From Eubacteriales Family XIII. Incertae Sedis bacterium (GTDB lineage: Bacteria; Bacillota; Clostridia; Peptostreptococcales; Anaerovoracaceae), in assembly GCA_031261345.1 (NCBI GenBank), contig JAISKC010000063.1, positions 7,490 to 71,489 of the forward strand: 64,000 nt of DNA, given 5' to 3'. Shown piece by piece: positions 1-19,784 of the stretch (its first letter is position 1; every line of letters begins with the position of its first letter). The notes below the pieces were generated by a model. That model searched no databases, was not told the DNA's origin, and saw only the letters and a list, made by a program, of their open reading frames with translations. The translations under genes were made by a program, and so were the position numbers.

Positions 1-261
1 TCGCCGCAAATATTTATAGCAAGGATCAGATTTGTAATTAGGTAAATAATGTTTTAGCCATATAATAGCAGCAGATGTATCCTTACTGAAAAACGCATCC
101 AAATCATACAACTGTTGTGCACTCAAATCTTTGGTGAGGTGCCTATCAATTCGATTGTCAAGTTCATCACTGAACTCCTGTAACAAGTCTTTTATTTCAC
201 TCTCGGAATCTCCTGTTAATTCTATTTTGTTAATCAAACTACGATTTATTCTGACATTCAC
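1..261 (-). CDS. hypothetical protein, N-terminal part only (runs off left edge)
   Basis: Open minus-strand frame from GTG 261..259 to the window edge. AGAGGA lies about 9 nt upstream and the frame is preceded by in-frame TAA TAG. It is absent from the ORF track because it is truncated. No motif recognised. Confidence 0.3.
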   Translation of the reverse strand, partial: MNVRINRSLINKIELTGDSESEIKDLLQEFSDELDNRIDRHLTKDLSAQQLYDLDAFFSKDTSAAIIWLKHYLPNYKSDPCYKYLRR

Positions 262-399
262 TATGCAAATCCTCTATTATTTATAGGTATAGCCACATAA
301 ATATGATAATTTATTAAAATATCAAAATGGAAAAACTGCTCCACATATATTTGTGAAGCAGTCCGAAAGTCTTGAAATTATTTATTGGACTATCTATCT

Positions 400-1866
400 T
401 TAGTCGTGCCTCAGAATGACTAATTGAAATTCACCGTTATCAATGAGATCATCCAGATGCTTATCATCATCGACATCTCCTCTATAACCATCTATTATTA
501 GCAACGTATCTTTCTTATGACCAAATAAAATACGCATTTTATAGCCATATAAAGCTTCCTTACTCATGTCATCCTTTAAAATACTATTTTCAACAGATAG
601 TTCTGAGACAATAGTATCCATTATTGAATCACGAAAAGGCAGCCAATAAACTGCATTGTATTTACTTCGACTATTTCTGATGTATTCCTTAAATAAATTA
701 CGTTTGACTTCATAATCGGAGGCGGGAACAATTACACATCTATTTTGTTGGAGTTTTTTCTTTATATTTATCAACTCATTTGAATGTGTTCTCTTCTTAA
801 GCGCTATAGATTCGATCTCATTACCAAAGAACTCTCTTTGCAAGCTGAGTTCATGAAGTCTACTAAACATATTAATCAGTGTATCAATATCTTGACACCG
901 ACACGAAGGTGCTGGCTCAAGTGTGGCGGATAGAATTTCTTTTACAATGCCAACGCAACGGTGATCAACATTTTCAAGATACCGATTGTCCGAACCCAAA
1001 TTCCAGTTGCCACCGGAAAACAGGATATCGTTGTTTACATCTAAATTGCGATTGGTTAAGAGCCAAAAGAAGACAGCTCCAATCGAAAACAAATCTGTGA
1101 CTTCCGTGATGTCCTTATGTCTGCCAGTTTGCCTTTGTTCAGGTGCCGCCCATTCACTAGAAAAAGAAAGAAATGCGTAGTTTCCATCTTTAATGTCGGA
1201 TACTTTCTGTATCGAATCAAAATCAAAAATGAAAACTATATTTGTGTTTTTTACTTTCAATATATTAGCTGGTTTTATATCAAGATGAACATAGTGATTG
1301 TCGGTTTTATGGTATCGCCTAATTGCCATTGATAAAGATAACATTATTTCGCTAATATCCGTTATCGTTTTAATTTCATCTCTACATTTATTGAGTGGGA
1401 TTCCCTCTGATGATTCCATGACAATATATTCTGTATTGTTACCAGAGAGTATATCTACAGGCGTTATTGTTTGATTTTGATGAACGCGCTCCATATTGGA
1501 ATGAATAATGTATCCATTGAGAAAACGTTTTCGACCTTTCTCAAAAGCGTCTCTTGCTGAATCAGCTATGGTAAGTGTGCCATCTTTCTCTCTTTTTATA
1601 GAATTAACCAGTTGAGAAGGGTAATATTCTTTTATGACCTGAATATGAGGAGCTTCAAGAACCTCATCTCGATATCGCACACTTTCAATTCGTTCTGCTT
1701 TGTAGACAATAGAACTTCCACCTTGACCAAGTACGTCGGTAATTCTGTATTTCATTTTTACTTTTGCACCATCGTCGTCAAAATCATGTAGCAACAGATT
1801 GTAATCAATAGGTAACTCTGCTTTTTCTACATTATCAAACGAGGAAAGTAAGCTATATATGTCCAT
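400..1866 (-). CDS. Hanks-type Ser/Thr protein kinase with an uncharacterised ~150-aa C-terminal domain
   Basis: Kinase motifs present: G-loop GQGGSSIVYKAE, VIKE lysine, catalytic loop HLDIKPANIL, DFD(S) in place of DFG, and AAPE. The C-terminal part (CVIVPASDYEV...TLLIIDGYRGD) looks like a P-loop-less NTPase-like remnant. Confidence 0.8.
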   Translation of the reverse strand: MDIYSLLSSFDNVEKAELPIDYNLLLHDFDDDGAKVKMKYRITDVLGQGGSSIVYKAERIESVRYRDEVLEAPHIQVIKEYYPSQLVNSIKREKDGTLTIADSARDAFEKGRKRFLNGYIIHSNMERVHQNQTITPVDILSGNNTEYIVMESSEGIPLNKCRDEIKTITDISEIMLSLSMAIRRYHKTDNHYVHLDIKPANILKVKNTNIVFIFDFDSIQKVSDIKDGNYAFLSFSSEWAAPEQRQTGRHKDITEVTDLFSIGAVFFWLLTNRNLDVNNDILFSGGNWNLGSDNRYLENVDHRCVGIVKEILSATLEPAPSCRCQDIDTLINMFSRLHELSLQREFFGNEIESIALKKRTHSNELINIKKKLQQNRCVIVPASDYEVKRNLFKEYIRNSRSKYNAVYWLPFRDSIMDTIVSELSVENSILKDDMSKEALYGYKMRILFGHKKDTLLIIDGYRGDVDDDKHLDDLIDNGEFQLVILRHD

Positions 1867-1950
1867 ACGTTTTGCTCCTTAACTAATTATACCTTACAAG
1901 CGTTGTAAATATCAGGATTTTTATAAAGTCACCCATTATTTGCACTCCTC

Positions 1951-1959
1951 TGATATAAT
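1951..1959 (+). promoter_or_regulatory. putative extended -10 promoter (TGaTATAAT) for the 389-aa gene
   Basis: TGATATAAT lies about 50 nt upstream of GTG 2011. There is no good -35 element. Confidence 0.3.
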
Positions 1960-2010
1960 ATATCTGGAAACTATATTTATTGGAAATTTCACTCCAGAGG
2001 GGGCTACGCA

Positions 2011-3180
2011 GTGCCGAATTTCAACACAATCGAAAAGGAGAAATATCTTCTACAAAATAGAGATCTTGGAACAGATGATGTAATTGCCTATATTACAGAT
2101 GAGCATAACTTCCTTTCGTTTTCAGAAAGCTTGAAACGATTGATATTAAAGGATGATCCTGCTGCCGAAGTTCTATGGAATGAAGATGTAATACATTTAC
2201 TCTTCGATAAGTTTGACAATGCAGGAATTGAGTATCTTGAGGATACTATCAGAGATTGGGTGAATAAGAACGCCAGACCAAAGAAAGAAGAAGGATATGG
2301 TATTAAACTGTGCTTTGCTTTCGATGGCTTTAAGGGGAATCCTGAGAGTGCAGATGATTTTCTACAACGAGACTGCTACCTTGATGGTCTAAGTCCTAGA
2401 GAACCAAATGAAATAATTGTTTGGCACAGTATAGCAAAATCATATACGTATGAGCAATGCGAAGAACTAATATCTCAATATAACGATGCGATATACGGAA
2501 TTACTCCTGCCGAAGCAGACAGATATGAAAGCATCCACACCAAAGTACTGGTGTCAAAATTCTTCTCAAATTCTGCCAAGAAAAACGATGATACGCTTAT
2601 CTCGGATCTTGTCGATTTTTATTCCACAGGAAAATTTGGCAGATACAGAAAGACCGCACACTATTTTTTCACGCAAGATAAAGAACAGATATTGAATGAT
2701 ATGGAAACATATGATGATAATGACAATAAAAGAGTGTCTTACCGTAAGCTGATGAATCTATTGTTTCCTCGCCCAGAAAGAAAGAAAAAGTGTGGCATTT
2801 CTGATGATCAGCAACCAAAAGGCATAGGCGAACCCCGGTCATATAAAGAATCAAAATTCCCCAAAGACATTTACAAAGGTATACCGAACAAAGGTGATCT
2901 CAGTAATTTTGAAAAAGGAAAAGTACCAGTAAGTCGCAAGGCTCTAATTCTATTGTATTTCTCCGTGTATTCTCAGCAAATTTGGACTGATAATGAAGGA
3001 TGGACTATGAAGCAGTGGTTTGATGATTTTCGTACGAAAATGAATATGCGTCTTTCACAGTCCGGAATGTACGAACTATATCATGGAAACCCCTTTGATA
3101 TGATGATCATGTTCTGCGCATACTCCGAAGAACCAGATTACTTCTTTGAAGATTTAATTCAACGTGCTTATAATTGTTGA
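2011..3180 (+). CDS. hypothetical protein (389 aa)
   Basis: Long ORF with a GTG start and AGAGGGGG 8 nt upstream. It is divergent from the kinase gene and converges on the APH-like gene with only a 3-nt gap. No motif recognised. Confidence 0.6.
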   Translation: MPNFNTIEKEKYLLQNRDLGTDDVIAYITDEHNFLSFSESLKRLILKDDPAAEVLWNEDVIHLLFDKFDNAGIEYLEDTIRDWVNKNARPKKEEGYGIKLCFAFDGFKGNPESADDFLQRDCYLDGLSPREPNEIIVWHSIAKSYTYEQCEELISQYNDAIYGITPAEADRYESIHTKVLVSKFFSNSAKKNDDTLISDLVDFYSTGKFGRYRKTAHYFFTQDKEQILNDMETYDDNDNKRVSYRKLMNLLFPRPERKKKCGISDDQQPKGIGEPRSYKESKFPKDIYKGIPNKGDLSNFEKGKVPVSRKALILLYFSVYSQQIWTDNEGWTMKQWFDDFRTKMNMRLSQSGMYELYHGNPFDMMIMFCAYSEEPDYFFEDLIQRAYNC

Positions 3181-3183
3181 GGT

Positions 3184-4023
3184 CTAATGCGCATTAAAGT
3201 AGTTTTCATAAAATTTGCGTTCTGCAGAAGACACAACCCCATTAACTGCTCTATTTAATAGGCGTATAATCAACCATCCATTAATTTTATTTACATATCC
3301 CCGTTTCGAAAGTCCCTCTGTAGCTATGTTTATCCATTCAGTTGCAGCTCCAATTTCACCATCTTCTATCATTGCACCTGCCATTGTTGCAATATCAAAT
3401 GACAACGGTCCATATCTAATGGCCTCAAGATCGATTAAGCATACACCCTTGTCGTTACTAATCAAGACATTGTTGGGTGTAAACGAACCGTGAATTAGCA
3501 CCGAAGGCTCATCCATTATCGTGCCAGTATCGATAAAGTTAATCATCTCACGTAGTGAGAATAATGATTCCGTTTCCATAATGCTACTAATAATCATTGG
3601 TATATTCGGCTTCAGAGAGAACAGATGGTCGGTTCCCGGTATTTCTTGGATATCAATTTTGCAAAGGCTAAATTGATGCAGGGAATCAGAAACCGATTGG
3701 AATGTGGTTTCATCACTTGAATTCATTTCATTCGAAGGGAAGTCCTTTGTAACTAGATAAGGGGTGCTGTCTTTTAGGGAACCTGATGCAATAATTTCAG
3801 GCACAGATGCAATACCTTGTAACTGAAAAAGGGCAGAAGCTTCTCTTTCGATACCAGCAAATACACTATGTGATTTTTCGAATTTCACCCATACATTTGA
3901 ACCATAATCCAACTCAAATTTCCAAGATTCATGCCGCTGATCAATCTCTGGACAGACTCCGTTACGGAGAAAAAACCCTTGCGTTGATAGTATCTCAACC
4001 AACTCCAAATATCTAATATCCAT
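3184..4023 (-). CDS. aminoglycoside-phosphotransferase/choline-kinase-fold protein with a substituted catalytic Asp
   Basis: APH-fold core LIHGSFTPNNVLISNDKGVCLIDLEAIRYGPLSFDIA. The Brenner motif reads HGS rather than HGD. The ATG overlaps the ATP-grasp stop (TAATG). Confidence 0.7.
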   Translation of the reverse strand: MDIRYLELVEILSTQGFFLRNGVCPEIDQRHESWKFELDYGSNVWVKFEKSHSVFAGIEREASALFQLQGIASVPEIIASGSLKDSTPYLVTKDFPSNEMNSSDETTFQSVSDSLHQFSLCKIDIQEIPGTDHLFSLKPNIPMIISSIMETESLFSLREMINFIDTGTIMDEPSVLIHGSFTPNNVLISNDKGVCLIDLEAIRYGPLSFDIATMAGAMIEDGEIGAATEWINIATEGLSKRGYVNKINGWLIIRLLNRAVNGVVSSAERKFYENYFNAH

Positions 4024-5033
4024 TAATTCTTGTTGCTACCATTGGCCAAACGTGATAGTTCAGTTGCTATTGCACAACCTATTGGTAGCCCTGCTAACTC
4101 CTCAAGCCATGCCCACTGTCCATTAGGATTTATTTCGAAGAAAACCCATTCATCATCTTGCGTTACAGCCAAGTCAACGGTTGCAAAAACTAAACCGTAG
4201 CTATTTACAAACTCAGCCAGAGCATTTCTAACTTTTTGCGGAACAATTATCGGTTCGTGCGGAACATTATCGAAATCATAATGTCTCCAATCAAGTTGCG
4301 TCTTCTCCGAAGCTTGAGAATCAATTTTGCATGCAAAAAAATTTTCTCCTACGATTACAACTCTCACTTCGAATTTTTTCGTTATTTTCTCCTGATATAT
4401 TGCCGGTGCAGATAATATCTGTTCGTCAGAGATTTTTTCTTGATTGAAATTCTGAGTGAAAATCATATATTGCTTATCGAAGCTATCGACCAATGGTGTC
4501 CCCGGAGTAATGACTTTTGTTATGAGACCATTTGGAGATGAATCTGCAAATGATTGAACCTCCTGGGGCCGACATGAACACAAAGTAGCAGGTATTTTCA
4601 AACCGTACGATAGAGCTCGATTCAGTTGTTGCACCTTTGGCTTTGCTAATGCTTGAGCATATGTGCTATTTATCCAATCAGAATGAATGAAAGATAGCCC
4701 ATTTTCAAGAAGAGCTATCTTTTGTTCACGAATGTATTGATCGGCCAATCTATCTCCAGTGCCAGTGTCAGGACTCATGGGCGATACTATTCTTCGCCTA
4801 TTCCAAACACAGCCAACTTGACTGGGCAAAACAACCTTTCCTGAATCAACTACATACTCAACATGTGTATGCTTCTCGCCGGAAGCCTCTATGATAATAT
4901 TTGTCTTTTCACCAAGCAAATCAGTCGTCAATAGCTCCCAGCTTTGACCCAGTCGGTCAAGTTGTTTTGTCACAAATGGCAAATGAGAATCTACTGCAAA
5001 AGTTACGAGTAAAACTGTTTGTGGCTCAGTCAT
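4023..5033 (-). CDS. MvdC/MvdD-type ATP-grasp peptide macrocyclase (graspetide ligase)
   Basis: 336 aa and collinear with the microviridin ligase MvdD as I recall it: VLLVTF..D at the N-terminus, CVWNRR, DWRHYD, and FFEINPNGQWAWLE near the C-terminus. The start overlaps the upstream small ORF by 8 nt. Confidence 0.8.
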   Translation of the reverse strand: MTEPQTVLLVTFAVDSHLPFVTKQLDRLGQSWELLTTDLLGEKTNIIIEASGEKHTHVEYVVDSGKVVLPSQVGCVWNRRRIVSPMSPDTGTGDRLADQYIREQKIALLENGLSFIHSDWINSTYAQALAKPKVQQLNRALSYGLKIPATLCSCRPQEVQSFADSSPNGLITKVITPGTPLVDSFDKQYMIFTQNFNQEKISDEQILSAPAIYQEKITKKFEVRVVIVGENFFACKIDSQASEKTQLDWRHYDFDNVPHEPIIVPQKVRNALAEFVNSYGLVFATVDLAVTQDDEWVFFEINPNGQWAWLEELAGLPIGCAIATELSRLANGSNKN

Positions 5034-5190
5034 CAGGTGTGAATTCTTTTACCGGACTTGTTGTCGTAGCTATGCAAGTAGTAGTTCCCTTGCACTTAAT
5101 AGACTCCACATCCGGATATTCCCTATTCTCATAGAGAAAAGGAAGTATACTTTCTGGCTCTTCTACGACAATATTTTCGTTCACATTCAT
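5026..5190 (-). CDS. 54-aa candidate graspetide precursor peptide (not in the ORF track)
   Basis: My own translation is MNVNENIVVEEPESILPFLYENREYPDVESIKCKGTTTCIATTTSPVKEFTPDD. GGGAGGG lies 7 nt before the ATG. The leader has an LPFLYE motif resembling the microviridin PFFARFL. The tail is Thr/Ser/Lys-rich and ends in acidic E..DD. The stop overlaps the ATP-grasp ATG. Confidence 0.7.
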   Translation of the reverse strand: MNVNENIVVEEPESILPFLYENREYPDVESIKCKGTTTCIATTTSPVKEFTPDD

Positions 5191-5234
5191 AATAAGACCC
5201 TCCCACTCAAAAATACTATTGCTTTAATTTTTCA

Positions 5235-5263
5235 ATTATAGAACAGATATCGTTCATTTTCAA
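5235..5263 (-). promoter_or_regulatory. sigma-A-type promoter for the precursor/ATP-grasp module
   Basis: Minus strand reads TTGAAA (5263..5258), an exact 17-nt spacer, then TATAAT (5240..5235). It sits about 45 nt upstream of the precursor ATG. Confidence 0.7.
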
Positions 5264-5299
5264 CCATCTATGCACCATACTTGTGTATGATATCTTCAA

Positions 5300-6085
5300 T
5301 TATTGATAATCCGTAATTATTCTTCTAAGTTCCGTCACCAAAAGAACTGCGGATAAGGGGTTTGGTCTGATTGACAATGCATCAGCAGGTGTATCGTCAC
5401 CCATCCCATTTAGTAGCAAATTTGCCGGATGCCCCGTGTATCTTATCACCTGATTATATACGTCTTTTTCCTTGCATATAATCATTCCGCATTCACCAAT
5501 ATCTATCTGCTTGTTGGGACCAAAACTAAATACGGCAAAATCACCAGTGGTACCACACAATTTGTTTCGATATTTGACCATAAAACTCTGCGAGCAATCT
5601 TCTATTATTTTGACATCAGGTCTATTTATTCTGCCCAATACTCTTTTAATTTTCAAGACATCCACAGGAATAGCATTGTAGTGTGTTGCCACTATAGATT
5701 TTGTTTTGGTTGAAATCAATTCTTCGATTTCATTCACGTTCACTATATTCTTTGCATTGACAGGCGCATATATAGGCTTTGCTCCAAGCGAAACAATCGC
5801 CGCCTCCGAAGCTATCCAATCCACTTCTGGGATTATTACTTCATCGTCTATCCCAACACCAGATACTTGCATGCAAACTCGAAGACCATAGGAAGCAGAA
5901 GGTATTAATCTTGCATATTGACACCCATATAGCTGACACAACAAGGATTCTGATTCCTTGACAGCTCCACTGCCCAATATTTGGCTCGTGTTTCCTAATG
6001 AGTATTCATTTTCTATTTTCAGATATTCAATATATGATTGAATCGCGCCCTCAAGCCATTTCTTATCAGGGTGATATTTATCCAT
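5300..6085 (-). CDS. DegT/DnrJ/EryC1/StrS-family PLP-dependent enzyme (short form)
   Basis: IIEDCSQSF...GDFAVFSFGPNKQIDIGECGMII matches the DegT-family active-site lysine region. I prefer ATG 6085 (4 nt after the AAA+ stop) over the track's TTG 6103. At ~261 aa it is shorter than typical family members (~370 aa). Confidence 0.65.
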   Translation of the reverse strand: MDKYHPDKKWLEGAIQSYIEYLKIENEYSLGNTSQILGSGAVKESESLLCQLYGCQYARLIPSASYGLRVCMQVSGVGIDDEVIIPEVDWIASEAAIVSLGAKPIYAPVNAKNIVNVNEIEELISTKTKSIVATHYNAIPVDVLKIKRVLGRINRPDVKIIEDCSQSFMVKYRNKLCGTTGDFAVFSFGPNKQIDIGECGMIICKEKDVYNQVIRYTGHPANLLLNGMGDDTPADALSIRPNPLSAVLLVTELRRIITDYQ

Positions 6086-6089
6086 GGAT

Positions 6090-7769
6090 TTATGCAATTG
6101 CAATTAATTCTCGAATTCTTTGTTCCAACTTGACTTGGTCAATATTGCCATAATCGTCCAATATGTTTCTGATATATTCTGCTGGAGAAGTATTTTCAAC
6201 AATCCATGGTAGATAGCGCCTAGATGATGTGTATTTCAATGCGTTTAATACTTGCAATTCCTCTCTTGGACCGAATGGGTGCAAGAAATTATCCAAGGCT
6301 TCTGTAAATTCGAATTCTGTAATAGTAGTCTTTCCCACTTCATTTGCAATAATATTTGCTTCGTCTATAATGCCAACAATTTGGCGACCCGACACTTTTT
6401 TGTTTGCTTTTGAAAAGGCATTGATTATTCCAGTCGAATCAATTTGAATATTAGCTCTTTCTGCAACCTTCTCCGCAATGCTAGCCTTCTCTTCAGGAGA
6501 ATCAGCCTCCAAAACAGGTAACACTTTCAATCTACTTCCCGCGAAAGCACTATCAATGAGCTCCGGTTTGTTGGATAGACCTATTAGCGATATTCCATTA
6601 TTGCTACCTGTGTCTCCAAGCCACTCCAGCAAAATACCTCTAAGGGCATTATCAGTTTCTGAGCTTTCAGTTCTGGAGTTCGTTCTCTCCCCAAAACCTT
6701 GGCTTTCGCACTCATCCACTATCACAAGAATTGGTGCCATACTTTCAATAATGGAAATTACTCTTCTCAGTTTCCTTTCACTTTCGCCATACCACTTGTC
6801 TTTTACTGCAGACAAAGAAACAGCCGGCACACCCATTTCCCGCGCTATTGCAACGCTTACGTAGGTTTTTCCTGTCCCGGGAGGACCTACAAGAAGAAGC
6901 CTCAAAGTTTTCCCTTTCATATCATTTACATACTTTTTGACGTTTTCCATCCCAGCAACATCTCTGTTTAAATCTGTGTCTTCTGTACGCACAAAAAGCA
7001 TTCCTTGTGCTGCCTCATTTATCAAATTCACCTTAAATTCGACAACATCACTAATTTTCAAAGGATTCTCCCTACTCGTCAATTTCCGAAGCCTAGATAT
7101 CGCATCTATTGTAAAGCCACCTGTGCTATTTGCAAGTTGATTGATATCAACTTCAGGAGAGCAGACAATTGGAGGCTTTGCAGTTGCCGCACCCATTATG
7201 GTTATCGCCTCCCTTCTCTCATCAACCCCAGGGAGTCTTAAGGATACCGACTGAATACCGATTGACTGCAAAACCGTTGAATCTATATCGTCCGTTCTGG
7301 AGATTAGTATAATTTGATGCCCCTGATTGTTCCATCTACTATCTGTAGTGGCACGACTAACAATATACTCTCGAATTGTTGAGGAGGATGGTTCATCTAT
7401 GCCACCTTGGCAAGGCATAATGTGCTCAGCAAAATCGAAGATGATTGTTGTCCTTCCTGCGCCTTCCCTCTCAAGGTTTCTAAAAATGCCAGTGATTACT
7501 TCAATTGGGCTTCTGAGATTGTCCCTATCGTCTTGTAGTTCAGAAAGCACATCCTCATTTCCAGTGACAATATTTTCAATTCCTCGCTCAAATGAATAGT
7601 AAACAGCAGGAATACCTTGAAATTCCGATTCCTCGGCGATAATCCTTCGAATCGGAACTAGGTGTCCTCCGTAAATAAACAAATCACTTGTATTGGAAGT
7701 AAAATTCAACACAGTATTTGTTTTTAATGCATCGCTGAAGCTTTTTACAATAACATCTGTTCTACTCAT
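6090..7769 (-). CDS. AAA+ ATPase (classical clade) with a degenerate N-terminal AAA-like lobe
   Basis: Walker A LLLVGPPGTGKT, Walker B ILVIVDECES, and a second-region-of-homology-like GLSNKPELIDSAF. The N-terminal ~270 aa keeps Walker-B-like TTIIFDFAE and LPGVDERREAI but has no P-loop. Confidence 0.85.
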   Translation of the reverse strand: MSRTDVIVKSFSDALKTNTVLNFTSNTSDLFIYGGHLVPIRRIIAEESEFQGIPAVYYSFERGIENIVTGNEDVLSELQDDRDNLRSPIEVITGIFRNLEREGAGRTTIIFDFAEHIMPCQGGIDEPSSSTIREYIVSRATTDSRWNNQGHQIILISRTDDIDSTVLQSIGIQSVSLRLPGVDERREAITIMGAATAKPPIVCSPEVDINQLANSTGGFTIDAISRLRKLTSRENPLKISDVVEFKVNLINEAAQGMLFVRTEDTDLNRDVAGMENVKKYVNDMKGKTLRLLLVGPPGTGKTYVSVAIAREMGVPAVSLSAVKDKWYGESERKLRRVISIIESMAPILVIVDECESQGFGERTNSRTESSETDNALRGILLEWLGDTGSNNGISLIGLSNKPELIDSAFAGSRLKVLPVLEADSPEEKASIAEKVAERANIQIDSTGIINAFSKANKKVSGRQIVGIIDEANIIANEVGKTTITEFEFTEALDNFLHPFGPREELQVLNALKYTSSRRYLPWIVENTSPAEYIRNILDDYGNIDQVKLEQRIRELIAIA

Positions 7770-7778
7770 TTTTTTCTC

Positions 7779-8444
7779 CTATACTGTGAGTTTTCCTTTT
7801 ACGGCCTTATTTTTCCCTTTTACAGTCGTCTTGCTCTTCTGCGAGACAACATCATCCGTTTTAAATTGCTTCCCCCTTGTTTCGGGAACCAAAAGAATCC
7901 CCTCTTCAAGCGAGATATTCTTTTCTCGGGCAATTGTGGCCCCTACTGCAACCAGACCTCCACCTTTAGTGTCTCTATGAGGGACATGCTTTGTTTTCTT
8001 CAGCTTGATACCGTTTTCCTCAATCTTGTCCTCAAACTCCTTTTGCTTTGCTTCACAGGAGGAGTCGGACAGACCAACCCAGTCCGTTTTTATACTTCCA
8101 GCATTCTCAACAAGAACGAAGACCGACTCGTGATTTTTCGTTGCTCCAATAACATAATTATCATTTTCATTTCTAACAATATTTGTAATGTTGAAATCGA
8201 GACTTTGCAGAGAATCCTGAACAATGAATGACGTAACCAATGATGTTACCTGCGTTGATGTCAAATCGAGACTGCCGCCATTTGATAGCAAATTACTGAC
8301 CTCCGTTTTAAGTGTTGTTGCTTCTCCTAGCAAAGTGATATTTTTGGTTTTCAAACTCTCGTTTTCTGTTGCGACTAAATTCTTTACGCAAACATCTGTC
8401 AATAGTGTGTCAAGTGAAACTGCTACTGAATCATATGTACTCAT
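7779..8444 (-). CDS. hypothetical protein (221 aa, Lys-rich C-terminal tail)
   Basis: ATG 8444 is preceded by AGGAGGAG, and the longer track start is rejected. It sits 16 nt after the upstream stop and 9 nt before the AAA+ start. No motif recognised. Confidence 0.6.
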   Translation of the reverse strand: MSTYDSVAVSLDTLLTDVCVKNLVATENESLKTKNITLLGEATTLKTEVSNLLSNGGSLDLTSTQVTSLVTSFIVQDSLQSLDFNITNIVRNENDNYVIGATKNHESVFVLVENAGSIKTDWVGLSDSSCEAKQKEFEDKIEENGIKLKKTKHVPHRDTKGGGLVAVGATIAREKNISLEEGILLVPETRGKQFKTDDVVSQKSKTTVKGKNKAVKGKLTV

Positions 8445-8460
8445 AATTTCTACTCCTCCT

Positions 8461-9723
8461 TTAATCAAATACTTCATCTCTAGGATCAACTATTAGCGGG
8501 TCTGATTCTGGCAGTGGTGGCTCTGGCTCCGGATATGATTCGACAGGTGGTGGGTCTTGAACTTGACTTTGTGCCTGCCGCCTATATAACTCCGTCAATC
8601 CAGCATCATTTATTTTACGTTCCAAGTCCGCTTGGAGATTTCGTAGGTATACATCTCTCTCATCATCTATCTCATTGACTTTGAGTGCGATATCTTCAAT
8701 GTCCGCTTTTGCATATTTAATGTTATTGAGGTGCTTGCCCTTCTTGTCCAAGATGACGCCGACGGCCTCAATAAGAATAGCCAATGTTCCGATAAAGGGG
8801 AACACCTTTTTATTTCGATCGCGTTCTTCTTCCACACCTTGTATTTCATCCTCGAATATTTTTTCAATTGCCGGAGTATATGTGCTATTTGCAATATTTA
8901 TCGTTATGCTTGCATTTATCTTGCTTAAATCACGATTGTAAATTTGTACTGCTCGGTCTGACGAAAACCAAAAGGCCGATACGATTATAATAATGAATAC
9001 GGCAACTCCTGCCACAATGCATTTGAGAAATGGGACGGTTTTCCTTTCCACAAACTCACCAACCAAGTGAAAATCATCCCATCCCACAAGAAAATAATTT
9101 GCACAACCTGCTACAGCCAACGAAACAATCAGGGAAATACCAGCGGCAAGAATCAACTGTATAGTTTGATTGTCTCCCCAGAGATTAAAGTCTTTAAAAA
9201 AAATAAATTCAAAAATGACAGTGGCAATAAACCCACCCCAATGCATCCAGGAAAGAAGCGTATTTGGGACTTTCTCAAATCTGTTTGTCTCTTTGATAAC
9301 AAGTCCGCTTGTAATCCCATGTAATTTATCCGCATCTTGGAGTCCATATATAGAATTTGATTCTCTTCCCTCAAGAAGCGCGTCTATTGCTTCTATATAG
9401 CCTTGAACGCAAACTCTTTGTGTTGCGATTTCACTTTCCAAGGTTTCATCATTGCAAAATTCCAACAGCTCATCAAAAATCGGTGGAATATAAGACAAGG
9501 TCTCTTTTTCATCTCGGAGACTATCATTGTAATTCGGACTCTCCAATAAAGTAATCCGAATCTCTTCTTGAGCCCAAAAGAGAGGATCTCTTTCCATTAG
9601 GTTTCTGTTGTTTTCCCTTGCAGCCGCAGCAGCGGCCCTGCGAAGAACATCCTGCCTTTTTTTTTCGTGCCAGTCTCTCCACCACTTCCCTGTAAAAAAA
9701 TCCACTATAATATTATCCGACAT
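8461..9723 (-). CDS. integral membrane protein (~4 TM) with coiled-coil and Pro/Glu-rich C-terminus
   Basis: RBS AGGAGAG. Hydrophobic segments WGGFIATVIFEFIFF, IQLILAAGISLIVSLAVAG, FLKCIVAGVAVFIIIIVSAFWF and VFPFIGTLAILIEAVGVIL. C-terminus reads PPPVESYPEPEPPLPE. Confidence 0.65.
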   Translation of the reverse strand: MSDNIIVDFFTGKWWRDWHEKKRQDVLRRAAAAAARENNRNLMERDPLFWAQEEIRITLLESPNYNDSLRDEKETLSYIPPIFDELLEFCNDETLESEIATQRVCVQGYIEAIDALLEGRESNSIYGLQDADKLHGITSGLVIKETNRFEKVPNTLLSWMHWGGFIATVIFEFIFFKDFNLWGDNQTIQLILAAGISLIVSLAVAGCANYFLVGWDDFHLVGEFVERKTVPFLKCIVAGVAVFIIIIVSAFWFSSDRAVQIYNRDLSKINASITINIANSTYTPAIEKIFEDEIQGVEEERDRNKKVFPFIGTLAILIEAVGVILDKKGKHLNNIKYAKADIEDIALKVNEIDDERDVYLRNLQADLERKINDAGLTELYRRQAQSQVQDPPPVESYPEPEPPLPESDPLIVDPRDEVFD

Positions 9724-9731
9724 AATCTCTC

Positions 9732-10643
9732 CTAATTAATAAATTCCGCAACCGCTACAGTAGTCTGCTCAGGATTATAGTCAATCAATCCGATGCTATA
9801 TTGCTGAAGAAATTCTTTTAGCAAAGCCAATCTTTTCTCCCCTTCACTAGCACTGTCTGGGGTGGCTAATATCAAAACAGCCTGTGCATTATCAAAAGCC
9901 CACGGTGTAATATTGTCGGGTTCGATATTATCAATCAAATCGCTTGCAATCAAAATTGACACATCTTTATTTCCTCGCAAAGCTGACAATCCAGCCTGAA
10001 TGGTATTGTAAATACCACTCCCGCCACCAACTATTTCTAGCTGTGTATTCCTTATCAGTTCGCTGGCTTCTTGTGCAGAAATTAATGCTTCCTCATAGGC
10101 TTTGTCCCAATTTTCCTTTTCAGCCTGCCAAGTTGCTGCTTCCATTGCATCATCACCTATTGGCATAGCCGCTAAAGCAGGAACACCCTTCCTGACAATA
10201 ACAACATCAGATTTATTGCCGGTTTGCTGTGGATTTGCCCCGATTGCCAGAATACGAAGCCTCAGTTCCGGAATCTCATTCACACCATCTGTAACTTGAG
10301 TCGGCTTTTCAGTAATATTAACGCTATCCGCCAAAGCCTCCTGGACACCTATATAAAAACTATAATCTGTTGAATTAGTCGTGTCGATGATTGCGAGTTT
10401 TTGTCTTACGGTTAACTCATTCGCTCCAACAGGAGTAGCCGATTCCCCAGATTCATTATTAAAGAGCGCATCTAAGTGAGTTTTTTCTAGGATTGTATCA
10501 AGCGTACTTGATGAGAACATCTTTAGGAGTACAACCACAATTGCAATTATTGCAATTATTGCAATTATCGGCTTGAAAAAGGGTCTATTTCCACGACCAT
10601 ATCGCCTTCCATTCCTTCCTCTGCTATTTCTGCCCCTACGCAT
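9732..10643 (-). CDS. N-terminally membrane-anchored protein, possible vWA-like domain
   Basis: Arg-rich N-terminus (MRRGRNSRGRNGRRYGRGNR) followed by the TM segment IIAIIAIIAIVVVLL. The vWA call rests on weak hints: the DxTxS motif AIIDTTNST and ILIASDL. Confidence 0.55.
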   Translation of the reverse strand: MRRGRNSRGRNGRRYGRGNRPFFKPIIAIIAIIAIVVVLLKMFSSSTLDTILEKTHLDALFNNESGESATPVGANELTVRQKLAIIDTTNSTDYSFYIGVQEALADSVNITEKPTQVTDGVNEIPELRLRILAIGANPQQTGNKSDVVIVRKGVPALAAMPIGDDAMEAATWQAEKENWDKAYEEALISAQEASELIRNTQLEIVGGGSGIYNTIQAGLSALRGNKDVSILIASDLIDNIEPDNITPWAFDNAQAVLILATPDSASEGEKRLALLKEFLQQYSIGLIDYNPEQTTVAVAEFIN

Positions 10644-10836
10644 AAAGATTATTCCTTTCCAATCATTAAATACAAATACCCTTTGCGGAAAGATATTGAA
10701 CTATTAGTTTCTATTTGCTAATTTTGCTATAACATTTGCATTATACACTATGCATTTCTACAATGGAATACCAAATCCACTTTATTGGCAACGCTTTTCT
10801 GCAAAATGAACTCACGAATATTCAACAAGCATTATC

Positions 10837-12858
10837 TTATGATACTCTTTTCAGTGGGAAAGAGCACGGCGATGTATCAACTGTATAGTCGCCATAGACT
10901 TGTACCCATCTGATATTATTGTTATCCTTTACAAGGATTTCAAAGTGATAATTGCTGTTTACTGCACCATATAGAGTCGTCATCATTGTGAGGATACTTG
11001 TGCCCTCAAAATTTATAGGGATAGAGTTGCCTTCTGCTTTACCAACTGTATATGTGCCTGTTTCGGCATATTCGCCCCAGTCCTCACCAAGATTCAGTGC
11101 GTATGTGAATTCTCCATTACTAAAGAATTCAAGTGTGTAATCTTGCCCTGAATCCCACTTTCCTATGAGGTTAAAGTCACCAGCATTTCTATCAGGCTCT
11201 GGTTCAGGTGTGGGCTTCTCTTCAGGGATATTCGTGTTATCCTCTTCATCATACTGTGGTGGTTCTATACGGCTACTGTTTAGATCCGTGGTGATTCCGG
11301 CTTCGGTAAATGCCTTCCTAATGTTTTCAACATCAATACTTGTCAATAGTCCATCAGACATCATGTATTCTGCCATTCGAACTGTTGCCGTTCCAAATTC
11401 ATTCATTGTGCAGTCTGAAGGAATCATATGCTCTGTGCCATACCATAACTTTGCAAACTCTGCGACTCTACCTTTTGGAGCCCCCTCAGTCCCCAAAAAT
11501 TCTACGCCAATATTATATGCAACATAGTCGATAATAAGAGAATTTGTATGCACTCCACCATTGTCTTCACTCGTCCATACGTAGTTGTCCATAGTCTTTT
11601 TGTTTGTGTAGTTGCGAATCACATTACGCCAATCGCAATGCCCGGTGACATTATGTTCAACAATCTCCCCAAAGATATCAGAGACGGCCTCATTGATTGC
11701 TCCCGACTGATCTCTGTATATCAATCCTTCGGGAGAAACGACCGTATCAGAAACTCCATGCGTAAATTCATGGGCGACAACATCCAGATTTCTTGAATAT
11801 TCCTTGCTACCTTTCTTTGACACAACAAAACTCATCCATCCCTCACCAGTATCTGAGTCGTATGAGAAGTACGCATTATCAGCTCCAAGAATATTTACAT
11901 ATATAGGCAACTTACTATTTCTATTGTCAAACTGTGTTCTATTCAAAGTATTGCTGAAAAAATCATATGTGCGAGCCATGTTGCCCATTGCATCAATTGC
12001 AGACTTGTTGTTATCCGCAGATGTAACAGGCTTGGCTGATTTAATATTTTCATATTTCTTATATTTGTTCGTATAAGTCTGGAGGTTGCGACCTTTATCG
12101 ATCATTAGTCTCTGCCCATTCTCATCTTCATAGGGAATGTCATATTCTGAGTCATCTTGTCCTCTTGCCTTCTCAAATGCACTACAGACTTCACTCAACG
12201 CATCAATAACTTTACCGGATTTCGCATCTACGAATATTGACATTGACACATATGTGTCCGAATAACCATTAGCCTTAATTTCATATGCAAGAATAGGATC
12301 CGCGCCTATAGAATATATGACTAAACCCTTTGCTGTTGAAGAAATGAAATCTTCGTTACAATCCTGCTTTTTCACAAGATATTGTTCCGCTGCATCCATT
12401 GCCTCTTGTTCTGTGACTTTAGGATTTGTTTCAATATTTGATATCGCTAGATAATTACCGCTTGCTCCTTGTGAAACACCATTGTCACCAGCAACAACTA
12501 CCATACTGCGCCCATATACTTCTATTCCATTATAAATTTGCTGAGTGTGATAATAAGTTCTTGAATCAATAGTATTATCGCCAGCCGGAATAAACACTTC
12601 GGTAGCATTCACGAATCCATAATCTTCGGAAAATACATTGAGCGAATCAATTGCACTTGCTGCATCAGTAATAAGAATATCAGTATATGTGCCATCATAC
12701 GTAACATATATTGACTCTTCTTTTTCAACATCACCTTTTGCTGAGTGTCCTTGAAAAAAAGGAATTGCAACAAACCATCCGATTGCAGCTATCGCAAGCA
12801 CAACGATAAAGGCAATAATGATACCGACTCTAACTTTTCCCGATGTAGATTTGAGCAT
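10837..12858 (-). CDS. M4 (thermolysin-family) zinc metalloprotease, N-terminal membrane anchor, extra C-terminal domain
   Basis: HEXXH motif in VVAHEFTHGV and the third zinc ligand in GAINEAVSDIFGE. TM segment VGIIIAFIVVLAIAAIGWFVAI. I use ATG 12858 (GGAGGG 7 nt upstream) rather than the track's 12921. Confidence 0.85.
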   Translation of the reverse strand: MLKSTSGKVRVGIIIAFIVVLAIAAIGWFVAIPFFQGHSAKGDVEKEESIYVTYDGTYTDILITDAASAIDSLNVFSEDYGFVNATEVFIPAGDNTIDSRTYYHTQQIYNGIEVYGRSMVVVAGDNGVSQGASGNYLAISNIETNPKVTEQEAMDAAEQYLVKKQDCNEDFISSTAKGLVIYSIGADPILAYEIKANGYSDTYVSMSIFVDAKSGKVIDALSEVCSAFEKARGQDDSEYDIPYEDENGQRLMIDKGRNLQTYTNKYKKYENIKSAKPVTSADNNKSAIDAMGNMARTYDFFSNTLNRTQFDNRNSKLPIYVNILGADNAYFSYDSDTGEGWMSFVVSKKGSKEYSRNLDVVAHEFTHGVSDTVVSPEGLIYRDQSGAINEAVSDIFGEIVEHNVTGHCDWRNVIRNYTNKKTMDNYVWTSEDNGGVHTNSLIIDYVAYNIGVEFLGTEGAPKGRVAEFAKLWYGTEHMIPSDCTMNEFGTATVRMAEYMMSDGLLTSIDVENIRKAFTEAGITTDLNSSRIEPPQYDEEDNTNIPEEKPTPEPEPDRNAGDFNLIGKWDSGQDYTLEFFSNGEFTYALNLGEDWGEYAETGTYTVGKAEGNSIPINFEGTSILTMMTTLYGAVNSNYHFEILVKDNNNIRWVQVYGDYTVDTSPCSFPLKRVS

Positions 12859-13023
12859 ATATTCGTTCCCTCCATATTGGTATATAATTAACTTACACCA
12901 ATTATATATGATGGAATTCACGAATGGAAAATAAGCTCCACCTTACCCGCCGACCTATTACATGATAAAATGGTCAATAGTAAGAACTAGGGAAACCAAT
13001 AAGTTGCAAAATCCACAATATGA

Positions 13024-13860
13024 TTAAATGTGATTCAATACGCTACACATATCATCATATCCCATCTTCGCACAGACCTCTAATTTGCTTTGATTTGCAG
13101 TAGTTCTTTTGACCATTTTTGACATATCACTTGGATGACATACCAATACCTTACTTTTATCGGCTTTGTTTTGTAAATAGTCCATCATAATATTTGATTC
13201 TCCATTTCTTTCAATAATTTCCTCAACTAATGCATCATTATATTTTGACAAAAATAACTTATATGCCTTTCGCATTAAGAACCCCATTTCCTTAGGTCTG
13301 GCACAAATATCTTTTGTCAGAATAACAATTGTCAAATCATATTCTTCGATTAATTCATCTTGAAAAGGAATTGGAGTGGCAACACCACCATCCACATAGC
13401 CTTCTCCCTCTATGTCAACAATTTTGCCATACAGAAGAGGGAGAGCCGAGGTTGCCCGTATAAGCTCATAAATATCAGCTTTTCCATCATTACGATATTG
13501 AAAAGGAGCTCCTGTTTCTGCATCAGTTAGCATAATATCAAATACAATTTTTGATTTTTCCAACAAATCTATTTCTAGCGGATTCTTAGCTTTTAATGTG
13601 TCAACCATAAAATCAATATCTACAATTTTTTTTAATCTGAGAAAATTTACAAAATCCTTATTACTCAAATATCTAACATAAAAATCCACTGCCTGCTTCG
13701 TCCTCTTTGAAATGTAATAAGAAGCATTAATTGCTCCAGCCGATGAACCCACTATATATTTTATGTCATCAGCATATTTTGATTCCGCTAAAGCATCTAA
13801 TGCTGCCATTGAATAAACACCACGCATTCCGCCTCCTTGAACAACAACCGCTATTTTCAC
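13024..13860 (-). CDS. patatin-like phospholipase (copy 1)
   Basis: QGGGMRG oxyanion motif, GSSAG nucleophile elbow and VDGGV catalytic Asp. GTG start with GAGAGGTG upstream, 1 nt after the stop of copy 2. Confidence 0.85.
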   Translation of the reverse strand: MKIAVVVQGGGMRGVYSMAALDALAESKYADDIKYIVGSSAGAINASYYISKRTKQAVDFYVRYLSNKDFVNFLRLKKIVDIDFMVDTLKAKNPLEIDLLEKSKIVFDIMLTDAETGAPFQYRNDGKADIYELIRATSALPLLYGKIVDIEGEGYVDGGVATPIPFQDELIEEYDLTIVILTKDICARPKEMGFLMRKAYKLFLSKYNDALVEEIIERNGESNIMMDYLQNKADKSKVLVCHPSDMSKMVKRTTANQSKLEVCAKMGYDDMCSVLNHI

Positions 13861-13861
13861 C

Positions 13862-14737
13862 TTAGCACCTCTCTTTGCTTTGAATATACAATAAATATTT
13901 TTTTATTTCTTTTATAACATTTTGCATATCAATATGCCCCAATGCTGAACATTTCTCTAGTTTCTCTTTATTTGAAGTAACTATCGAAGCCCTATCCTTT
14001 AAATTGGATGGAAAACACACGAAAACATTACTATTACTAATTTTGTATTGTAAAAAATCCATCGTAGCATTGTATTCAACGTTCTCACCAACAAGTTTTT
14101 CTACAACATTATCCGAATACTTCGATAAAAACACTTTGAAAACATTTTTTAAAAACCTACCCATCTTTTTTTTTCGATCATTTATATCACAAGTCAAAAT
14201 CACAATAACTAGATCTGAATGTTCTATCAATTCATTATTTAATGGTAAAGGCGATGCAATTCCACCATCACAGTATAATTCACCTTCTATAGAAACAAAC
14301 CTATTGTAAAAAAATGGAAGAGCAGCTGTAGCTCTTATTAACTCATAAATGTCAACACTGCCATCATATGTAAAAAGTTCCGGGTTAGCGGTTTTCTCTT
14401 CAGTTAATGCCACATCTAATTTGATGTTTGAAGTTCTCAACAACTCTATGTTTAAAGGATTTTCCAACTTCAGGGTGTCAACCATGAAATCAATGTCTAC
14501 TATCTTATTAAATCTATGTAAATTAATAAAATTCTTATTACTGAGATAATTAATATAGAAATCCACAGCCTCCTTTGTCCTTTTAGAAACAAAATATGAC
14601 GCATTAATAGCTCCAGCAGAACTTCCGACAATATACTCAACATCTTTCGCCAATTCCGAGTTTGCCAATGCATCTAAAGCTGCCATAGAATACACACCAG
14701 CCATACCTCCACCCTGAACAACAACAGAAATTTTCAA
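13862..14737 (-). CDS. patatin-like phospholipase (copy 2, Arg of the oxyanion motif replaced)
   Basis: QGGGMAG, GSSAG and CDGGI. It is clearly paralogous to copy 1 over its full length. The TTG start overlaps the NTPase stop (TTGA). Confidence 0.85.
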   Translation of the reverse strand: MKISVVVQGGGMAGVYSMAALDALANSELAKDVEYIVGSSAGAINASYFVSKRTKEAVDFYINYLSNKNFINLHRFNKIVDIDFMVDTLKLENPLNIELLRTSNIKLDVALTEEKTANPELFTYDGSVDIYELIRATAALPFFYNRFVSIEGELYCDGGIASPLPLNNELIEHSDLVIVILTCDINDRKKKMGRFLKNVFKVFLSKYSDNVVEKLVGENVEYNATMDFLQYKISNSNVFVCFPSNLKDRASIVTSNKEKLEKCSALGHIDMQNVIKEIKKYLLYIQSKERC

Positions 14738-16719: not shown

Positions 16720-17147
16720 AGTATTTCCCTTATTATGGAATAGCATTATATATTTTTTTCCTTTGCTATTCTCTTTTAGCTTTAACATATAGTATATAAT
16801 AGATACATTGGATTAGCATTTTCCACTATCTCTTTGATGATTTCAGTAAAGCTCTAGCCACCAATCTTCCCAAGTCATTTGAAAAAAATCCGGCTAAGAA
16901 ACCTTTTCTTCATACACTGATACACACCTCCCTTGTTACGCGATGGATTATATGCTATCACACGCCCTTGTAATACAATAATGTTTACAGAAACAACACG
17001 CATTGCATTATGCTGTTTCAATGCTTAAATTGAAATTCTGATATTCAACATACATTCAAACCGATTCTGCTTATTATATCAAAATGTTCATATAAATAAA
17101 ATACGAAAAAATCCGTTCTTCAACCAGTGCTAATCTTGATTATACAA

Positions 17148-17173
17148 TGACTTCCATAAAGCCACGGAAATAC
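17148..17173 (+). repeat. partial copy of the GACTTATAGCCACGGAAA motif, at the composition step
   Basis: atgacttccataaagccacggaaata here versus atgacttatagccacggaaata at 19641-19662. Confidence 0.4.
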
Positions 17174-17207
17174 TACTCCAGAAAAAGCAATTATGTATTA
17201 AGATTTT

Positions 17208-18367: not shown

Positions 18368-18370
18368 GAG

Positions 18371-19510: not shown

Positions 19511-19620
19511 ATAATCACCTCGCTGTACTTCTCGCCAGTTCACCAATGCTAAAACAATTATATCAGTAATCTCCACCGTTTATTTAAATTTCACCTGTGA
19601 TTTTGATTCGCCGCATAATT

Positions 19621-19660
19621 GGCTATAAGTGCTCAAAATAATGACTTATAGCCACGGAAA
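19621..19660 (+). repeat. hairpin repeat, copy 1 (GGCTATAAGT-13 nt-ACTTATAGCC-ACGGAAA)
   Basis: Perfect 10-bp stem between 19621-19630 and 19644-19653. Confidence 0.7.
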
Positions 19661-19735
19661 TATCATTTCTTTAGTTGAATTCCTTCAAATTACAGTATAT
19701 AATTCAATTCACAAAGGCCAAAGGGAATTTTATCT

Positions 19736-19775: not shown

Positions 19776-19784
19776 GGAAAGTTT

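Follow-up and report, generated by a model that had tools for sequence, protein, structure and literature searches.

The stretch of DNA analyzed in this work (hereinafter, the window) spans 64,000 nucleotides (nt) of contig JAISKC010000063.1 (positions 7,490 to 71,489 of the forward strand; assembly GCA_031261345.1) of an Eubacteriales Family XIII. Incertae Sedis bacterium. It harbors five consecutive minus-strand genes, here named A to E, coding for a putative vWA-fold protein predicted to lie outside the membrane (A), a polytopic membrane protein (B), a soluble protein (C), a AAA+ ATPase (D), and a short pyridoxal phosphate (PLP) enzyme of the DegT family (E); their coordinates are reported in Table 1. 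All five open reading frames (ORFs) were found where a first-pass annotation of this DNA had placed them, and the gaps of 8, 16, 9, and 4 nt that separate them when the ATG starts are considered were confirmed. These starts coincide with those of an independent gene call in another assembly of the same sequence (L008; 303, 420, 221, 559, and 261 amino acids (aa) for A to E, respectively). The five genes constitute a single coupled unit. The idea, already put forward in the annotation, that they are transcribed and translated together is supported by the small gaps, by the GGAG-type ribosome-binding sites located upstream of B, C, and D, and by the same five-family order in at least 10 other distinct loci.

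Table 1. Coordinates of the five-gene cassette and of other features of the window (UTR, untranslated region; GC, G+C content).
Feature	Position	Strand	Remarks
Gene A	9732..10643	(-)	303 aa ORF
Gene B	8461..9723	(-)	420 aa ORF
Gene C	7779..8444	(-)	221 aa from ATG; 236 aa from an alternative upstream TTG at 8489
Gene D	6090..7769	(-)	559 aa ORF
Gene E	5300..6085	(-)	261 aa from ATG; 267 aa from an alternative TTG at 6103
Intergenic region 5′ of A	10644..10836	(-)	193 nt; presumed promoter and 5′ UTR of the cassette
Graspetide precursor	5026-5190	(-)	54 aa
ATP-grasp maturase	4023-5033	(-)	TIGR04187, 9e-56
APH/choline-kinase-like phosphotransferase	3184-4023	(-)	PF01636, 1.6e-9
Two tandem patatin-like phospholipases and 684-aa STAND-type NTPase, one operon	13024-16788	(-)	GC about 0.31-0.33
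PDC-S27 candidate defence protein, full-length	19785-21197	(+)	PADLOC E 3.6e-199; ATPase_2 and DUF234
Ser/Thr protein kinase, PD-T4-6-like	400-1866	(-)	PADLOC 1e-15; edge of the low-GC island
Rfam DUF3800-XI RNA motif	46986-47033	(+)	59.5 bits (gathering threshold 37.8)

The signals for the expression of the cassette presumably reside in the region upstream of A, near which just weak promoter-like matches were detected (10860-10831, 9/12). At the opposite end, a near-consensus promoter (TTGAAA-17-TATAAT, 5263-5235, minus strand) lies within the 109 nt between E and the graspetide precursor gene, where the first-pass annotation had anticipated it. No terminator was predicted between these two genes, so that read-through from the cassette into the graspetide genes is possible. 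Concerning base composition, the GC content is 0.405 in the operon, 0.381 in positions 1-20000, and 0.478 in the remainder of the window; the description of the region as an AT-rich island is thus true relative to the rest of the window.

Protein A possesses a poly-Arg N-terminus followed by one transmembrane segment (residues 22-40, by hydropathy), which we interpret as a signal anchor, and the sequence IIDTTNST, all of them recognized from the start. Its homologues begin with lipoprotein signal peptides carrying the lipoboxes LAGC, LTGC, MSGC, or FTGC, in place of which the window protein has the poly-Arg stretch and the transmembrane segment. Because of the homologous lipoproteins and of this N-terminus, the bulk of A is predicted to be extracytoplasmic; it would thus represent an extracytoplasmic component, and a lipoprotein in its homologues, rather than the mere anchor that had been suggested. 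No match to A was retrieved from Pfam, NCBIfam, PADLOC, or the PDB sequences, even at relaxed thresholds. Its AlphaFold2 (AF2) model, built on three sequences, has a predicted local distance difference test (pLDDT) of 62.8, with much of region 79-200 at 73-91. When this model was compared with the PDB by Foldseek, the top matches were nearly all vWA domains (E-values from 3.6e-5 to 1e-3), including those of TFIIH p44, vWF A1/A3, CD11b and other integrin I-domains, RPN10, and ITIH1, and the target-normalized template modeling (TM) score against isolated single-domain vWA targets was about 0.5. A motif resembling a metal ion-dependent adhesion site (MIDAS) is formed by D87-x-T89-x-S91-T92 plus S234-D235-L236; D87, S91, T92, and S234-D235-L236 are invariant in the A family, whose other members read D-x-S-G-S-T where the window protein reads D-T-T-N-S-T. 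Modelled fold and motif together, rather than any sequence match, support the assignment of A to the vWA proteins, with a putative MIDAS site, and give substance to the initial guess that it is "vWA-like".

Protein B exhibits three strong hydrophobic segments, a weaker one, and a Pro/Glu-rich tail, in agreement with its previous description as a four-transmembrane protein with such a tail. According to hydropathy, a common plan can be traced in 10 homologues: about 120 charged residues, a transmembrane hairpin, a short Lys/Arg-rich loop, a further transmembrane segment, a loop of about 55-69 residues, the weaker transmembrane segment, and, finally, an acidic tail of 95-260 residues. An additional N-terminal transmembrane segment is usual in the homologues and is absent from the window protein. 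The loop charges of the 10 homologues place the charged N-terminal region in the cytoplasm, and the details of this topology are to be taken as predictions. The alignment revealed that the end of the tail is conserved in its aromatic/acidic character (EVFD in the window; YYQD, FIVD, FFVD, or FDL elsewhere). No family of Pfam, NCBIfam, or PADLOC includes B; a hidden Markov model (HMM) of the family, however, finds a homologue at the same position in each complete locus.

Protein D matches PF00004 at 1.1e-20 (74.8 bits, cut-off 21.2), and its best PDB matches are a VCP-like ATPase and Cdc48 D2. Its second domain carries Walker A (GPPGTGKT, G295-T302, with K301), Walker B (D352-E353, in VDECES), sensor-1 N400, and Arg R413, all conserved in the family, together with a pore loop (W326-Y327-G328) whose KW[YV]G pattern is invariant. 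A family-specific LLEWLGD motif and a C-terminal extension with YLPW complete the protein. The first domain (about residues 1-270) is degenerate, with TGNTSD in place of the P-loop. The internal comparison of the two lobes by hhalign was weak (16.8%), and it was the profile search against the PDB that settled the AAA+ nature of the N-lobe: its profile matched a VCP-like ATPase at 7.9e-8, followed by NVL, Rix7, and spastin, and the alignment to AAA+ domains starts at the helix preceding Walker B and extends into the lid. A degenerate N-lobe joined to intact C-terminal motifs suggests that, of the two rings of D, the first would be dead and the second live and competent for threading. On sequence grounds, D is accordingly described as a tandem classical-clade AAA+ protein with a degenerate first domain and a predicted active second domain with an intact pore loop, which substantiates both parts of the previous assignment (a classical-clade AAA+ protein and a P-loop-less, AAA-like N-terminal half). 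In a Coriobacteriales metagenome-assembled genome (MAG), the D homologue (L007, 6254-7969) has GPPGTGKN as Walker A, where the others have GKT; this may be a variant whose ATPase is weakened or regulatory, or else an error in the sequence.

As for protein E, the match to PF01041 (3.9e-35, 122 bits, cut-off 19.8) covers only positions 25-200 of the 360 of the profile; with its 261 aa, as opposed to the about 370 aa of the full two-domain architecture, E appears reduced to the large PLP-binding domain, and the earlier impression of a truncated DegT/DnrJ/EryC1-type enzyme that retains its catalytic Lys (FSFGPNKQ) was borne out. The family profile matches ArnB (1MDO) at 9.2e-41, with K192 aligned to the lysine of SFHAIK and D163 to the Asp of IEDAAH. 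Both K192 (FSFGPNK, Schiff base) and D163 (IEDC, Asp facing the pyridine N) are invariant in the seven E sequences. In the DegT family, the dehydratases carry a His in place of this Lys. Since the Lys is kept, the chemistry of E is predicted to be of the aminotransferase type. E shares with the DegT sugar aminotransferases (ArnB, WecE, and PseC) the fold-type I PLP domain and the two catalytic residues. It differs from them in that its C-terminal domain is missing (in the window, L004, and L007) or short (elsewhere), in its family-specific motif SIRP(H/N)P (SIRPHP), in the lack of a keto-sugar-forming partner in any locus, and in invariably following the AAA+ gene. E reaches no NCBIfam equivalog cut-off (at most about 100 bits vs. 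375-650), and a search with its alignment retrieved generic viral DegT genes only (19-32% identity), so that E is not a specific anchor for cassette searches.

Protein C is soluble, and both its length, confirmed by the independent gene call, and its Lys-rich tail are as first described. It has a conserved N-terminus (MSTY) and a putative DUF2997-like core (about residues 108-154). When 1.84 billion representative proteins were searched in full with HMMER, 318 clusters were retrieved at E <= 1e-3, of which 115 reached E <= 1e-10; Cys130, Gly145, and Gly161 are invariant in the family, and M1, S2, A101, D121, G124, H156, G162, and A168 are near-invariant. The core of the AF2 model (residues 62-188) has pLDDT values mostly of about 80-90. 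Foldseek found no significant fold match to the model in the PDB or BFVD, the sequence-profile search gave no PDB match, and window C has no Pfam hit; no DNA-binding or sigma/anti-sigma domain was recognized. Pfam analysis of 76 family members and of 10 unusually long ones disclosed no informative fusion, and PF11211 (DUF2997) matched one of the 76, at 0.0021. It was the profile of the 76 sequences that pointed to the DUF2997-like proteins of two other loci, L009 and L010 (hhalign 95%, E 3.9e-8, residues 108-154), which themselves match PF11211 at 0.0023, below the cut-off.

In these two loci (L009, 4110-7686; L010, 4227-7545), a conserved operon embeds the genes for a multi-transmembrane protein, a DUF1257-like, Ycf35-like protein (PF06868, 2e-4), a DUF2997-like protein (PF11211, 2e-3), a 41-49-aa protein, and a Ycf46-like AAA+ protein, and is surrounded by housekeeping genes (GatB, DUF92, and PPDK) and not by cas genes. 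The AAA+ proteins (P0090 and P0054) are distant homologues of D (hhalign 99.7%, residues 136-495, including part of the N-lobe and LLEWLGD), and in either cassette the gene of a multi-transmembrane protein lies ahead of these genes, even though no homology was detectable between B and that of L009 and L010. Moreover, the segment of C preceding the core shows a weak similarity (35%) to the C-terminal end of the DUF1257-like protein, and the two parts follow each other as the separate genes do. The differences lie in the DUF1257-like and DUF2997-like parts, which appear fused in C and flanked by extra N- and C-terminal regions, and in A (vWA) and E (PLP enzyme), which are additions. Judging from these profile comparisons, the membrane protein/DUF1257/DUF2997/Ycf46-like AAA+ cassette is the closest relative of A-E; given the matches of C and D, the B-C-D core looks derived from it, with A and E added. 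In the literature searched, this relative receives incidental mentions only and is itself uncharacterized.

The conservation of the cassette was analyzed at loci found via the D clusters, via C, by scanning GTDB genomes with a pattern, and in metagenomes of the Joint Genome Institute (JGI); family membership was checked by BLASTP and by our own family HMMs. The order A-B-C-D-E is the same in L002, L003/L039, L004, L007, L013, L040, L041, and L043; partial copies cut by contig ends occur in L012 and L042, and in L001 D lies at the contig end. At least 10 distinct loci besides the window thus carry the cassette, in MAGs of Clostridia and Coriobacteriia (Gracilibacteraceae, Eubacteriales Family XIII, "Firmicutes HGW-4", and Coriobacteriales) and in metagenomes, and conservation of the gene order, the lack of which the first-pass annotation would have counted against its reading, was therefore found. 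A word-indexed search disclosed four other full-length D clusters with only 32-40% identity to window D, which implies that the gene order survived deep divergence. The same type of search gave three to four clusters each for A and C, thereby understating family size, as the HMMER figure for C demonstrates. C followed by D was found again in three further short contigs, with distant members of the C family.

Some of these loci show peculiarities of their own. L007 carries an extra B paralogue, and directly downstream of E a PP2C/SpoIIE-type phosphatase gene occurs in two independent loci (L007, 8911-9636; L043, 7018-7734); phosphorylation may exert control over some forms of the cassette. A gene with a Gln_amidase domain lies upstream in L043. 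The small genes that lie upstream of A share no homology from one locus to another. None of the 10 other loci has an ATP-grasp, a precursor of a ribosomally synthesized and post-translationally modified peptide (RiPP), or an M4 protease beside the cassette, which argues for a cassette that is autonomous and independent of its neighbors in the window. The location between a protease and a RiPP module, which had been taken as a functional hint, consequently loses its value as such; a link with the M4 protease was discarded for the same reason, and a role in graspetide export becomes unlikely.

The neighborhood that does recur is a different one. In five of the 11 distinct loci (L001, L002, L013, L040, and L042), seen on contigs of only 8-35 kb, the cassette directly adjoins genes or arrays of type III, mostly III-D, CRISPR-Cas systems. 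In L001, D is preceded by a Csx10-like gene, Cas7, Csx19 (TIGR03984), a RAMP (TIGR03986), and a Csx20-like gene; the Csx19 and RAMP matches both exceed their cut-offs. Downstream of E in L002 come two unknown genes, a Cas10-like one, a pair of RAMPs, and Csx19. In L040, a RAMP (TIGR03986) and two unknown genes lie 5′ of A, and in L042 a TM1812/DxTHG protein (a family that we take to be of the CARF type), a Cas10-like protein, and a RAMP are divergent from A. In L013, the cassette is located between an array/Cas2/Cas1/reverse transcriptase (RT) block and a second, co-directional array of four 38-nt repeats ending ATTGAAAC; the two arrays (1321-1502 and 12015-12270, 38-nt repeat GTTGCGCAAACCTTATTCCCCGCAAGGGGATTGAAAC) have opposite orientation to each other. 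No effector complex was found in the 17 kb of L013, so that the cassette occupies the usual place of the effector genes. The arrangements differ from locus to locus, the Cas proteins of the CRISPR-linked loci are about 27-31% identical, and the D proteins are 35-45% identical. According to a rough estimate, far fewer than 1% of random genes would have a type III module within a few kb; five loci out of 11 would, therefore, reflect a functional link and not chance, bearing in mind that the estimate comes from a small, non-random sample. Both the existence of the cassette and its linkage to CRISPR are, in our view, well founded, and we hold them with high confidence. This linkage and the kinship of the C-D pair with the DUF2997/Ycf46-like AAA+ cassette are the two most telling facts about A-E, and the first-pass annotation, made from the sequence alone, had no means of seeing either.

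Two details of the CRISPR-linked loci can be added. The C-terminal part of the L013 RT gives a weak match to NF040561, a CRISPR-associated primase-polymerase (5.9e-17). In L001 (6530-6653), two tandem 62-nt repeats, 87% identical and each with a GC-rich hairpin, separate the Csx20-like gene from D; they do not make up a CRISPR array and might serve in regulation or as a terminator.

No described system matches the cassette in PADLOC, Pfam, NCBIfam, and the literature searched; PADLOC returned nothing for A, B, C, and E and only generic AAA-core matches to IetA for D, in keeping with the view of the first-pass annotation that this combination fits no known system. An analogy in terms of neighborhood is represented by the type III membrane effectors (CorA with NrN or SAM-AMP (S-adenosylmethionine-AMP) lyase, Cam1, and Csx23), which likewise include a membrane protein and lie beside type III effector genes; like them, the cassette is a variable add-on whose position relative to the cas genes shifts. 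In the CorA-type modules, the membrane protein is paired with an enzyme that processes a small molecule (PMC13294483, PMC10600005, PMC10808066, PMC11014256). Unlike them, the cassette comprises five genes rather than one or two, has no recognized sensor of the CARF/SAVED/CorA type, and features, besides an extracytoplasmic vWA protein and a PLP enzyme, a predicted unfoldase driven by ATP. The surveys of type III accessory genes that were searched (10.1101/270033, PMC6546367, PMC11229360) contain no aminotransferase, no vWA protein, and no AAA+ protein of this kind. The idea that E acts on SAM-AMP, suggested by the III-D2/CorA literature, was also considered and set aside.

The Csx20-like gene of L001 would point elsewhere: if Csx20 is, as we assume, a predicted ring nuclease, it would indicate cyclic oligoadenylate signaling rather than SAM-AMP.

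Taking these data together, the reading that we favor, to which we assign a probability of about 0.55, is that A-E form an autonomous, mobile, envelope-spanning machine acting as an accessory module of conflict or immunity, in which remodeling would be driven by D. A role in defence, taken by itself, seems to us probable. It is this half of the "accessory conflict or export function" originally proposed that stands, the half concerning graspetide export being unlikely. According to the model, A-E would move horizontally as one cassette, with A outside the cell, B in the membrane with its long, presumably disordered acidic tail in the cytoplasm, and C, D, and E in the cytoplasm. D might assemble into a ring, as a hexamer-type unfoldase whose two ATPase rings would be one dead and the other live; C might be its adaptor or regulatory partner, as the DUF2997-type relatives of C may be in the DUF1257/DUF2997/Ycf46-like cassettes. 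Once activated, D would grip and pull an unstructured segment by its pore loops, most plausibly the conserved-ended tail of B or, alternatively, the conserved MSTY N-terminus of C; the pulling force would then remodel the B/A envelope complex, and either the membrane would lose its integrity, with abortive infection or with growth arrest as in other type III membrane effectors, or entry would be blocked. E might make or destroy an amine-bearing, nucleotide-linked small molecule tuning the response. In these particulars, the AAA+ remodeling mechanism is speculative, and we consider it rather unlikely to be correct as drawn. A narrower proposal, which we advance only tentatively as one possibility, is that the cassette is an unrecognized type III-D ancillary effector also able to work alone, i.e., an ATP-driven envelope-spanning machine whose unfoldase, working through a DUF2997-like adaptor, would mechanically reshape the membrane protein and its outer vWA partner so as to halt infection, and whose PLP enzyme would act on a nucleotide-linked second messenger or a related metabolite.

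Several observations weigh against an immune machine of this type. Neither a cas gene nor a CRISPR array is present in the 64 kb of the window, and six of the 11 loci (the window, L003, L004, L007, L041, and L043) are without CRISPR genes in the short contigs at hand; several of the CRISPR-linked loci bear JGI identifiers of the same series and maybe come from related samples, and the sample is small and non-random. Pfam, NCBIfam, and PADLOC disclosed no CARF, SAVED, CorA-type, or other sensor domain in A-E, and no nuclease, protease, or pore-forming domain was recognized, so that an "effector" activity is conjecture. The AF2 models were built on three to four sequences and have a pLDDT of about 61-63. 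Lastly, the search with the C-terminal alignment of D retrieved nothing from the IMG/VR viral contigs, by means of a pattern-based scan of low sensitivity.

Part of this evidence would also fit an envelope sensor or signaling device devoid of any effector role, in which A would detect an event at the surface (phage adsorption or cell-wall damage), B would relay it, and D would unfold or release the regulator C, thereby switching on neighboring immunity genes, including those of type III CRISPR-Cas. The putative ligand-binding MIDAS motif outside the cell and the lack of a recognized toxic domain speak for such a device, as does the variable position of the cassette relative to the cas genes (upstream, downstream, or divergent), and the phosphatase genes that follow E in two loci, together with the Ser/Thr kinase of the window island, hint at signaling. 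C, however, has none of the domains expected of a regulator of transcription that were looked for, the cassette also occurs where no cas gene is in view, and the PLP enzyme would be left without an obvious role; we therefore consider this possibility unlikely. Lower still is the likelihood that we attach to a housekeeping or niche function of the envelope, namely protein quality control or the modification of a surface polymer by a membrane-tethered AAA+ protein working with an amino-sugar-forming DegT enzyme, the proximity to CRISPR and defence genes being due to hitch-hiking in islands. Enzymes of the E family do normally make amino sugars for cell-surface glycans, the related cassettes of L009 and L010 lie amid GatB and PPDK, and a lipoprotein plus a membrane protein would suit envelope biogenesis. 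Against this, at none of the loci is the cassette joined by a sugar-nucleotide dehydratase, a glycosyltransferase, or a flippase, E lacks its C-terminal domain in three loci, the distribution is patchy (four to five clusters in the word-indexed search), and, in the window, the cassette sits in an island of low GC; besides, the contact with type III genes in varied arrangements and with such diverged D proteins is hard to obtain by chance.

The two other explanations concern, respectively, the neighbors of the cassette and the known systems that it most resembles. Being located directly upstream of the graspetide precursor gene on the same strand, with read-through possible, the cassette might be part of the graspetide cluster and serve the maturation, export, or immunity of its peptide. 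The precursor, on the other hand, has its own near-consensus promoter; the start and stop codons of the three graspetide genes overlap, and these genes stand apart from E; and, in the 10 other loci, the cassette has neither an ATP-grasp gene nor a precursor or kinase gene beside it, so that this explanation appears very improbable. We give hardly any credence to the idea that A-E is a diverged member of a described AAA+ defence system, either IetAS or vWA-MoxR-VMAP. The AAA+ module of D does give weak matches to IetA (PADLOC, 2.7e-11) and IteA (NCBIfam, 2.4e-7); the latter, however, amounts to 30 bits vs. a cut-off of 510 (NF042959) and is confined to the generic AAA core, no IetS-type subtilase is present, and A, B, C, and E have no counterpart, for which reasons membership in IetAS was rejected. 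An AAA+ ATPase and a MIDAS-bearing vWA protein in a conflict-type neighborhood recall the MoxR-vWA and vWA-MoxR-VMAP systems, and vWA-related systems near CRISPR loci have been mentioned in general terms (PMC10910872, in whose supplements no relevant match was found). D, unlike MoxR, is a classical-clade tandem AAA+ protein with a threading pore loop; its best matches among AAA+ proteins are Cdc48/VCP, FtsH, and PAN, and AAA_5 matches at just 0.022. Moreover, A, being exported or lipid-anchored, could not directly touch the ATPase, and the cassette has no VMAP component; membership in this group was therefore rejected, too. The immune or conflict module remains, in our opinion, the best reading.

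The surroundings of the cassette in the window offer additional observations. The low-GC 20 kb house, along with the cassette, the PDC-S27 gene, the PD-T4-6-like kinase, the two patatins, and the STAND NTPase (Table 1). The patatin/STAND operon lies in the most AT-rich part of the window; its patatins weakly match phospholipase "Effector" models of PADLOC (1e-9 to 1e-10) and its NTPase weakly matches nSTAND1 and mad8. This operon may be a separate defence module. Just 5′ of the PDC-S27 gene (19620-19775), there are two copies of a 41-nt repeat, 88% identical and 115 nt apart. In the graspetide module, the translational coupling of a kinase-like gene to the maturase gene is unusual, and the coupled kinase might mark a phosphorylated graspetide. 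Outside the island, the DUF3800-XI RNA motif adjoins a gene coding for an HD-domain protein (47191-47877, minus strand), and a periodic repeat with a 15-nt unit (spacings in multiples of 15 nt) occupies positions 38951-39306, inside a gene with DnaJ and DUF6273 (38642-40198).

Type III CRISPR-Cas systems work largely through ancillary effectors, such as the Csm6 RNases, the CalpL protease cascade, CorA with SAM-AMP, and Cam1, and each new class of them has revealed a new signaling chemistry or a new mode of cell arrest. The combination of an exported vWA protein, a membrane protein, a predicted threading AAA+ motor, and a PLP enzyme is new with respect to the catalogues and surveys queried, and, as a module that is conserved, linked to type III CRISPR-Cas, and so far undescribed, the cassette merits experiments. 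Even without a role in immunity, it would still be a conserved and well-defined operon whose function is unknown and whose targets for mutation are clear. If it were an immune effector, it would add to CRISPR biology a mechanical, ATP-consuming membrane effector, the PLP enzyme would gain a possible role in immune signaling, and an experimental handle would become available on the DUF2997/DUF1257/Ycf46-like AAA+ clusters of cyanobacteria, plastids, and archaea; should the cassette turn out to be a III-D ancillary effector, this would provide the first function for the widespread AAA+ cassettes of the DUF2997/DUF1257/Ycf46 type.

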